Source: Escherichia phage Pinarejo
Sequence record: PP925831.1
DNA: 64,000 nucleotides
Direction: 5' to 3' (one strand)
The notes under the pieces are model-generated. The model did not search any database and had not been told where the DNA came from. It saw nothing but the letters and a program-made list of their open reading frames with translations. Both the position numbers and the translations under genes were made by a program. Each line of letters starts with the position of its first letter. Within the stretch, counting starts at the first letter, position 1. Of this stretch, positions 9,423 to 10,515 are shown one piece after another.

Positions 9423-9893
9423 TTAATCATGTGTCCACACCCCATCGGTATTTGACCAAAGTCGCTGATTATCTGATCCTCGCCACAGCTTTTTGGTCGG
9501 AAGATTTTTCTCATACTTCCCATCAATAATAACATCAACATATTTAAGCATTTCTAGTTGTTTAATATCTTCAAACTTATATCCTGTCCACAACCAAATG
9601 TCTTTCTCAGGAAATCTTGCTTTAACCCAAGAAACTAAATTTGAAATCTCTTCTCGGTTCTGTGGATAAAGTGGGTCACCACCGGTTAAGGTAAGGCCTT
9701 GGATATACGATTTGCTTAAATGGGACGCAAGTTCTTTAACGGTATTCATAGTGAATAACTGTCCGTTACGAGCATTCCAAGTACTACGATTATAACAACC
9801 TTCGCATTTATGCAAACATCCAGTGACGAAGAGAACGACCCTACATCCAGGGCCGTTAACGAAATCGCATGGATAAATTCTATCATAATTCAT
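9423..9893 (-). CDS. nrdG: Anaerobic ribonucleotide reductase activating protein NrdG (radical SAM)
   Basis: MNYDRIYPCDFVNGPG... with CxxxCxxC cluster (GCLHKCEGC); N-terminus matches E. coli NrdG pattern; track ORF trimmed to this Met (156 aa). Confidence 0.85.
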   Translation of the reverse strand: MNYDRIYPCDFVNGPGCRVVLFVTGCLHKCEGCYNRSTWNARNGQLFTMNTVKELASHLSKSYIQGLTLTGGDPLYPQNREEISNLVSWVKARFPEKDIWLWTGYKFEDIKQLEMLKYVDVIIDGKYEKNLPTKKLWRGSDNQRLWSNTDGVWTHD

Positions 9894-10515
9894 CTTTATA
9901 TTTCCAAGTATATCCCTTATGAATAGATTGAATTCCTTTGCAACATTTATAAACAGCAGAATGAAAAAATCCTGCATTTCTTATTTCAGTTGCTCCAGTT
10001 AGTTCTATTGTATTTCCGTCTGGTGAATAGCCAATAACCGTTTTGGTGTTAAAGCGATTTCTAGAACTATTTTTGATATGCTCTTTATGACTAGTAGACA
10101 AAGTTCTTCCTGTTAGCCCATCAGATATCCTTTTTCCAAAATCATCAGGAAGAGTTACTTTAGACCTAGCTATGCTCATTAGCTTCTTAGTTTTATCGCT
10201 TCTTTTTGCGCCACGCTGATTTTCAAATTTCTTAGCTTTTGCATACGCGTATTGTGAAGAAGTAACTTTTCTATGCTTACTATTACTCATTATCCAATAT
10301 GCATCATACATCTTTCCACCATATATTTTAGCCAATAAATGGTGAGCAGTATAGTGGGCCTTATAAGTTAAAAATACTAAGTTGTCTAAATCATCTGAAC
10401 CACCCATACTTCTTGGAATTATATGATGAAGTTCATACCCGGCTTTAGTTTGACGGGGCTTAGATGGGTGTTCAGCAGAATTAACTAGATTTGAATAGAT
10501 TCTGTCATAATTCAT
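9883..10515 (-). CDS. Free-standing HNH homing endonuclease-like protein
   Basis: HHIIPRSMGGSDDLDNLVFLTYKAHYTAHH (HNH motif); inserted between nrdD and nrdG with overlapping start/stop on both sides. Confidence 0.8.
   Translation of the reverse strand: MNYDRIYSNLVNSAEHPSKPRQTKAGYELHHIIPRSMGGSDDLDNLVFLTYKAHYTAHHLLAKIYGGKMYDAYWIMSNSKHRKVTSSQYAYAKAKKFENQRGAKRSDKTKKLMSIARSKVTLPDDFGKRISDGLTGRTLSTSHKEHIKNSSRNRFNTKTVIGYSPDGNTIELTGATEIRNAGFFHSAVYKCCKGIQSIHKGYTWKYKDEL

Follow-up and report, generated by a model that had tools for sequence, protein, structure and literature searches.

The window analysed here, a stretch of 64,000 nucleotides (nt) of Escherichia phage Pinarejo (PP925831.1), carries an HNH gene between the anaerobic ribonucleotide reductase genes nrdD and nrdG. 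We conclude with good confidence that this open reading frame (ORF; 9883..10515) is mobC, a selfish homing-endonuclease cassette known from T4 and found at the nrdD/nrdG junction of only a small proportion of T4-like phages. The gene itself is already known and has been catalogued for decades in T4. Our additions are modest and concern the anatomy of the insertion, its transfer across genera and a predicted target region. The cassette is not simply inserted between two genes: it is embedded in the 5' end of nrdG, on the original initiation site of nrdG, and it brings behind it a substitute 5' end for nrdG, with an ATG located 11 nt ahead of the mobC stop. We propose, with about even odds in our estimation, that this arrangement represents start capture. 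The homing endonuclease gene (HEG) would be joined in frame with the first codons of the resident nrdG (7 in mobC and 13 in a second type of HNH gene, described below), would thereby take its translation start, and would supply a recoded nrdG 5' end. The start sequence typical of the endonuclease family would act as a built-in left homology arm enabling homing between genera, and the target of MobC would lie in nrdG nt ~20-65. The elements of the cassette in the window are the following:

9883..10515, minus strand: mobC, free-standing HNH homing-endonuclease gene of 210 amino acids (aa) and 633 nt, identified by its match to T4 MobC and by Pfam HNH.

10342..10434, minus strand: HNH catalytic core of MobC, residues 28-58, HHIIPRSMGGSDDLDNLVFLTYKAHYTAHH (PF01844 on residues 28-50; motif conserved in the distant homologues P0001-P0012).

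10495..10515, minus strand: left copy of the repeat, nt 1-21 of mobC with an nrdG-type start, ATGAATTATGACAGAATCTAT (direct repeat D1), whose ATG overlaps the nrdD stop.

9873..9893, minus strand: right copy of the repeat, nt 1-21 of nrdG, ATGAATTATGATAGAATTTAT, with the mobC stop codon inside (read from the sequence and from the direct repeat).

The identification of mobC is based on both sequence and position. MobC of the window is identical to T4 MobC (NP_049689; ORF 55.10) at 209 of 210 aa (99.5% aa and 99.8% nt identity), with a serine at residue 142 in place of the asparagine of T4. In the T4 reference, mobC (annotated as 'homing endonuclease; H-N-H family') lies between nrdD and nrdG with the same length, orientation and overlaps. 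Across the 3-kb region, identity is 100% with Escherichia phage Elenatom and 97.8% with T4. The HNH domain was matched by PF01844 over residues 28-50 with 26.9 bits (curated cutoff of 21.4), and its His...Asn...His core comprises HH30-31, N45 and H54/H58. A previous reading of this DNA, made from the sequence only, had already described a 210-aa HNH ORF between nrdD and nrdG that overlaps both of its neighbors, and the ORF list, the direct reading of the sequence and Pfam all agree with this description. The comparison of the locus with T4 shows that the gene is not a novel insertion: this is T4's own mobC at T4's own position.

Both ends of mobC overlap its neighbors. The mobC ATG and the nrdD TGA form CAATGAAT (10512-10515), and the mobC stop TGA (9883-9885) falls within nrdG codons 3-4, which yields an overlap of 11 nt with nrdG (G ATG AAT TAT GA). 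MobC ends with ...DEL-stop because nrdG codons 1-4 dictate those bases. The true start of nrdG is at 9893, as in T4, and the 184-aa ORF listed for this gene is only its longest upstream extension. In a 2010 review of mobile elements in T4, mobC appears as a free-standing HNH gene with nrdG/nrdD as its site, an activity given as 'ND' and an unknown target; the same review describes a 24-bp overlap of mobC with the upstream ORF and a ribosome binding site 27 nt upstream (PMC2988022). This 24-bp overlap (PMC2988022) is at odds with the sequence, where the sole in-frame mobC start gives the 4-bp ATGA overlap and in-frame stops are found directly upstream. ORFs predicted on the plus strand over the region (e.g., 10491..10739) were unsupported and were disregarded.

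The comparison with relatives confirms that the gene is an inserted mobile element, as the sequence-only reading had supposed. We found approximately 1000 records with a homologous nrdD-nrdG region, and an evenly spaced sample of this similarity ranking yielded 39 Tequatrovirus records, of which ~31 present the empty-site spacing of 2379 nt. The two genes directly abut in Sf21 and in more than 20 other HEG-less loci from several genera, mostly through an ATGA overlap. Most relatives therefore show nrdD and nrdG joined without an insert, and the intact junction that was to be sought in phages lacking the HNH gene is present in Sf21 and at least 20 other loci, mostly with the same overlap as at the mobC start.

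Both mobC and nrdG encode MNYDRIY as their first seven codons (ATGAATTATGACAGAATCTAT and ATGAATTATGATAGAATTTAT, respectively). The two sequences share 19 of 21 nt, and 21 of 24 over 24 nt, close to the ~20 of 24 that had been guessed from the sequence, and a repeat finder reported them as a 24-nt direct repeat (D1) with a spacing of 622 nt. When the window was searched for the degenerate 21-mer with at most 3 mismatches, it was found three times against 0.05 expected by chance, the third occurrence being a mob-like gene at 41976. This second mob-like gene (MNYEKIY, ATGAATTATGAAAAAATTTAT), whose similar start had also been pointed out before, matches the nrdG start at 19 of 21 nt, as closely as mobC does.

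We then asked how common this start is among relatives of MobC and of NrdG. A search of a large protein database with MobC returned 12 distant homologues and no close one. Seven of these 12 start with M[ND]Y-x-K-[IH]-Y (MNYKKIY, MNYSKIY, MNYQKIY, MDYCKIY, ...), with an alignment that runs on into ...LIxxA, and ten fit a looser M[ND]Y pattern that includes MMNYQKIY and LNYYKLH. A tblastn search with MobC gave 1063 matches, nearly all of them from residue 1. MNY-x-K-I-Y is thus the usual N-terminus of these distant homologues, and the first half of what had been named as refuting a link to nrdG, a start generic to the HNH family, is true. The start MN[YF]DRIY is in turn native to NrdG, as it is conserved in HEG-less loci of Tequatro-, Mosig-like, Jiaoda- and Slopekvirus type. 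Since the family start is generic and the second mob gene is equally similar, the identity of the seven codons within the window is no proof of an insertion footprint.

These observations are those expected if the resemblance was a pure coincidence, the HNH family N-terminus simply resembling that of NrdG, with nothing in mobC derived from nrdG and a repeat devoid of mechanistic meaning. The family N-terminus, the tblastn matches, the NrdG start native to all HEG-less genera and the start of the gene at 41976, which does not adjoin nrdG, all point in this direction. We nevertheless consider coincidence improbable, and three lines of evidence contradict it. First, D-R at positions 4-5 was found in none of the 12 distant homologues, nor in the MobC-like protein of the Klebsiella phage KP27, which is 44% identical to MobC and starts with MNYQKIY from its own intergenic start.

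Second, the start of mobC varies with the nrdG of its host. In all three Jiaodavirus carriers, mobC begins with ATGAATTTCGACAGAATCTA followed by TTCAAAT... (MNFDRIY), where the T4-type start is ATGAATTAT. The nrdG of HEG-less Jiaodavirus (KpV477 and loci L005 and L028) begins with ATGAATTTCGACAGAATCTAC (MNFDRIYPSDF), and the nrdG located behind mobC in the carriers has the cassette-type start ATGAATTATGATAGAATTTAT. Codon 3 of mobC is thus TTC (F) in these three genomes, as in the resident nrdG, while the remainder of the gene is identical to T4 mobC: the copies of Wolf_ER13 and Boboto differ from it at nt 8-9 only, and the Jiaodavirus copies overall at nt 8-9 plus one further site. Because F3 departs from the conserved Y of the Mob family, the start bases of the Jiaodavirus mobC derive from the resident nrdG, and the left junction of the cassette therefore lies inside the first codons. 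In the window, the mobC start differs from its own nrdG start at C12 and C18, and these are the bases of Jiaodavirus and Mosig-like nrdG starts (GACAGAATCTA).

Third, another and unrelated HEG at the same site holds an unambiguous copy of the nrdG start. This HNH gene, which we name Paracelsus-type, encodes 278-279 aa (Paracelsus, locus L003 3386-4225; UTI-K1, L040 2175-3011; SmallBear, L044 2175-3011) and was found in 32 records with at least 80% aa identity. Its first 13 codons are those of the resident nrdG, MNYDRFYPCDFVN in Tequatrovirus and MNFDRIYPSDFVN in Jiaodavirus, and it brings along an nrdG start encoding MNYDRIYPCCF, which forms a 40-nt duplication. The Paracelsus-type gene is an independent instance of the insertion design of mobC. 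In UTI-K1 it is annotated as 'ribonucleotide reductase activating protein', presumably because of its nrdG-derived N-terminus, and elsewhere as 'putative homing endonuclease'.

The identity of the seven codons is therefore a mixture. The residues M-N-Y-..-I-Y are a general feature of the Mob HNH family and, separately, of NrdG, whereas D4-R5 and the nucleotide variants track the resident nrdG allele. Pure coincidence is already largely refuted by the MNF variant. The shared start had been proposed to be an insertion footprint or the product of gene conversion: the part of this proposal that stands is that a real recombination junction exists there, as the Jiaodavirus mobC reveals, and the part that does not is that the identity within the window would by itself be diagnostic.

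The nrdG gene located behind mobC is a mosaic, and its segments are the following:

9423..9893, minus strand: nrdG, anaerobic ribonucleotide reductase activase, 156 aa, 471 nt, mosaic (Pfam Fer4_12 and Radical_SAM; 99.4% identity to T4 NrdG).

9804..9893, minus strand: cassette-linked 5' segment of nrdG, its first ~90 nt, transferred together with mobC between genera (from allele comparison).

9599..9893, minus strand: co-converted foreign tract, nrdG nt 1-~295, Jiaodavirus-like (~68% identity to HEG-less Tequatrovirus).

Relative to the HEG-less Sf21, nrdG presents ~68% identity over nt 1-294 and 100% identity over nt 295-471, with a sharp boundary at ~295 (~9599), and nrdD is 96-100% identical throughout. 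Compared to the Jiaodavirus KpV477, nt 91-330 are ~94% identical but nt 331-471 only ~65%. The first 102 nt present 0-1 differences among Elenatom, T4, Wolf_ER13 and Boboto, and 9-22 differences relative to HEG-less alleles. Synonymous third-position changes private to the cassette are found at nrdG nt 24, 39 and 63 (window positions 9870, 9855 and 9831). These changes are T24A, T39C and T63C, and the three sites do not vary among 22 HEG-less alleles of several genera. In particular, nt 24 is a T in 22/22 HEG-less alleles and is altered in all three HEG-linked allele types. A similar pattern was observed in KP27, where the nrdG that follows the MobC-like gene differs from that of a HEG-less relative over its first ~120 nt and is then nearly identical. 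We also considered residue 6 of NrdG (I versus F) as a marker of HEG carriers and ruled it out, since the HEG-less loci L011 and L031 also have I6.

These allele comparisons show that the transferable unit consists of mobC and ~90 nt of recoded nrdG, and that the T4 lineage gained ~200 nt more of Jiaodavirus-type nrdG by co-conversion. All 30 records with the nrdG 5' tract at 95% identity or more also carry mobC. The linkage is therefore complete, and precise excision is unsupported. This bears on another interpretation of the direct repeat that flanks the 622-nt insert, namely that it is a transposon-like target-site duplication or a substrate of precise excision, the empty sites then being derived by deletion of mobC. 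Precise excision would leave a T4-type nrdG 5' tract behind, yet each of the 30 records with this tract has mobC. The length of the repeat also varies with the cassette: ~21 nt for mobC, 40 nt for the Paracelsus-type gene and none for a third, segH-type cassette. The HNH nuclease is the only ORF, and the insert has neither a transposase nor terminal inverted repeats. Given that the element shows none of the fixed-length duplication, terminal inverted repeats and transposase of transposable elements, we rejected this class, and we regard a target-site duplication or excision substrate as highly improbable.

We further analyzed the distribution of mobC. The gene was found in 31 of 50,697 phage records, each with at least 99.2% nt identity over the whole gene; among the other records of this search, no match rose above the 80-90% band or covered more than a small part of the gene. 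A search for mobC relatives in IMG/VR gave one weak match only. The abstract of Sandegren et al. from 2005 reportedly placed mobC in T4 only, among 18 screened phages. The carriers that we identified include three Klebsiella phages of Jiaodavirus type (Wolf_ER13, Boboto and Shark_ER15). The nrdD of Wolf_ER13 is only 74% identical to that of the window, and the near-identity of mobC across genera with such diverged flanks therefore indicates a recent and active spread. Sporadic presence at a single locus, near-identical copies in diverged genomes and co-conversion of the flank were all observed, as is typical of HEGs. Together, these patterns identify mobC as a selfish element that has spread recently and has crossed a genus boundary. 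A 2012 paper considered that inter-genus transfer was without convincing evidence (PMC3468402); in contrast, the near-identical mobC genes of Tequatrovirus and Jiaodavirus constitute a clear case of such transfer.

Alternatively, mobC could be a defunct or domesticated passenger that no longer cuts DNA and that is spread by general recombination or by neighboring endonucleases (I-TevII or SegH-type), or that is kept for nrdG expression signals within it. Cleavage by MobC is unreported, trans-homing has a precedent in mobE acting in trans for I-TevIII (PMC2790892), and other HEGs target the same nrdD/nrdG junction. In addition, promoters for downstream genes are reported inside mobC (PMC2988022), which would add selection against its loss. 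The state of the gene argues against this scenario: each of the six copies examined has an uninterrupted ORF and a complete HNH motif, the few substitutions are mostly synonymous, and the 31 records remain at 99.2% nt identity or above over the whole gene. Moreover, mobC is present without the nrdD intron or I-TevII in the window, in HP3, in SHFML-11 and in the Klebsiella phages, and its near-identity across genera with 74% identical flanks denotes active spread. We therefore consider a passenger role unlikely, although somewhat less so than a pure coincidence of the two starts.

Jiaodavirus genomes contain a conserved ORF of ~72-79 codons between nrdD and nrdG that overlaps both genes (L038 2174-2413; L039 2811-3029). 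Its C-terminus is altered by the insertion of mobC or another HEG, from …FRQNLPF-stop to …FRQNLFKSS-stop.

The mechanism that we consider most likely would operate through the following steps. MobC would nick or cut a HEG-less nrdG near its 5' end, at nt ~20-100, which encode the conserved VNGPG...CxxxCxxC activase motif. Repair of the break would copy mobC together with the adjoining nrdG 5' end from a co-infecting carrier phage. Where the upstream flanks are not homologous (nrdD in Tequatrovirus and the 72-codon ORF in Jiaodavirus), the left crossover would occur in the ~20 nt common to the Mob and nrdG starts, and the chance likeness of these two starts may supply the left homology. The recoded nrdG 5' end could shield the carrier genome or mark the donor. 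Once inserted, mobC would take the native initiation region of nrdG, coupled to the nrdD stop, and nrdG would initiate in a new context, which behind mobC reads …GGAAATATAAAGATG.

The first ~90 nt of nrdG represent, by this reasoning, a candidate target or immunity region for MobC. This leads to a testable prediction: the MobC target would be found in the 5' ~100 nt of nrdG, especially in codons 7-21. The comparison of the cassettes also shows how a free-standing HEG can sit harmlessly in the start of an essential gene, that start being duplicated and recoded, and it explains several public mis-annotations, in which HEGs are labeled as NrdG activase and nrdG and seg genes are truncated. Our literature search, with Sandegren et al. 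2005 outside the comparison, found no description of a start-capture design.

Several points weigh against this explanation. There is no cleavage by MobC on record, its activity being 'ND' in the 2010 review (PMC2988022). It is conceivable that the original D-R codons arose by chance, given that the second mob gene reaches a 19/21 match without adjoining nrdG. A direction of transfer from Jiaodavirus to Tequatrovirus, suggested by the allele comparison, rests on a handful of genomes, and L017-type lineages too have GACAGAATCTAT at the start of nrdG. Finally, a scan of 9300-10700 for sigma-70 promoters and terminators returned no more matches than shuffled sequence. The only late-promoter-like match is a TATAAAT (7/8) at 9951 inside mobC. 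Because the scan is at chance level, we claim no dedicated nrdG promoter.

The nrdD gene of the window is uninterrupted and contains an empty intron site:

10512..12329, minus strand: nrdD, anaerobic ribonucleotide reductase large subunit, 605 codons without interruption (ORF list; full-length NRDD and Gly_radical Pfam matches).

11770..11812, minus strand: empty intron site in nrdD (between 11792 and 11791), an intron-less allele (alignment with T4, 1033-nt gap).

No group I intron was matched by Rfam in window positions 9000-13000, and the same scan scores the T4 nrdD intron at 105 bits. The sequence-only reading was thus right that nrdD is a single 605-codon ORF, unlike that of T4, but this is the ordinary state: an extra ~1.04 kb was found in only 5-6 of the sampled Tequatrovirus records and ~33/39 are without the intron. 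The allele at the intron site is identical to those of Sf21 and Paracelsus, and T4 exon 2 has ~7 synonymous differences in the next 22 nt. The intron-free nrdD is therefore the common, un-invaded state, and the inheritance of mobC is independent of that of the intron.

Elsewhere in the window, we identified one other gene of the same family:

41320..41976, minus strand: another HNH gene of Mob type, encoding 219 aa when read from the ATG at 41976 (Pfam HNH matches below cutoff).

From the gene order of T4, its neighbors are presumably the tail-completion gene 3 (40680..41291) and the DNA end protector gene 2 (41973..42800). T4 is not known to have a gene at this position. Mob-like genes also adjoin a 'DNA end protector' gene in ESh26, KaAlpha, SP1 and 4S. 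Two other differences among relatives were observed. At ~13664, the window lacks ~330 nt that are found in Sf21, in Paracelsus and, in diverged form, in T4, and that correspond to gene 49.2; a tblastn search of the window did not find 49.2 and found 49.1 and pin. At ~8900-9100, ~250 nt are common to the window, Sf21 and Paracelsus and missing in T4; they lie between 55.8 and nrdH and hold one more small ORF, located ahead of the glutaredoxin gene.

Several endonucleases are associated with the nrdD/nrdG junction, and the 2010 review reports that seg and mob endonucleases both target anaerobic reductase genes (PMC2988022). RB7 and other phages carry there a GIY-YIG gene annotated as 'segD', whose own start overlaps a recoded nrdD 3' end. 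This gene is very probably segH, which takes the place of mobC in some relatives according to a 2022 preprint. In RB7 (L045 3380-4212 and 4209-4679), the GIY-YIG gene is annotated too late, with the motif MHRYYIIYKITN... upstream of the annotated start. In both RB7 (L045) and SHFML-11 (L043 3619-4089), the annotated nrdG begins at an internal codon, even though the gene retains its complete MNYDRIYPCCF... start.

SHFML-11 combines a segH-type nrdD end, mobC and the PCCF allele of nrdG. Its left join lies at the microhomology CATGCATAGG, with the segH-type nrdD 3' end (…CGAGTAAAACATGCATAG) on one side and the final 18 nt of a T4-type nrdD end on the other, and the 16 extra nt between nrdD and mobC (L043 2975-3000) are a non-coding remnant. 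This junction indicates that the cassettes recombine with one another, one HEG cassette having replaced another.

Compared to known systems, the closest is mobC of T4, which is the same gene at the same locus with the same end overlaps; in T4 it is flanked by the nrdD intron and I-TevII, which are both missing in this phage. The Paracelsus-type gene shares with mobC its site, the 11-nt overlap with the nrdG ATG, a homologous C-terminus (...GY(T/N)WKY(K/I)(D/N)EL) and the supply of its own nrdG start, but only the HNH core aligns (38% over 60 aa), it takes in 13 codons of nrdG against 7 for mobC, and the tract that it co-converted in nrdG is only ~40 nt long. The segH gene lies at the same nrdD/nrdG junction and is likewise linked to a divergent 5' end of nrdG, that of the PCCF allele, but it belongs to the GIY-YIG family, has its own start on a recoded nrdD 3' end and holds no copy of the nrdG start. 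T4 mobE, another gene of the Mob HNH family (~30% identity), resembles mobC in being promoter-less, in starting over the stop of an upstream ribonucleotide reductase gene and in targeting an adjacent one; it differs in its location between nrdA and nrdB and in that the cleavage of nrdB by MobE has been demonstrated (Wilson & Edgell 2009, PMC2790892). Our literature search found no described capture of a downstream gene's start by mobE. Finally, the mobE that splits nrdA in Aeromonas phage Aeh1 (Friedrich et al. 2007) and the mobA/gene 60 bypass cassette are Mob HEGs located within an essential gene, where the sequence of the cassette keeps the host gene functional, as is the case here. In contrast to those systems, mobC does not split nrdG, which is regenerated intact by its duplicated and recoded 5' end.

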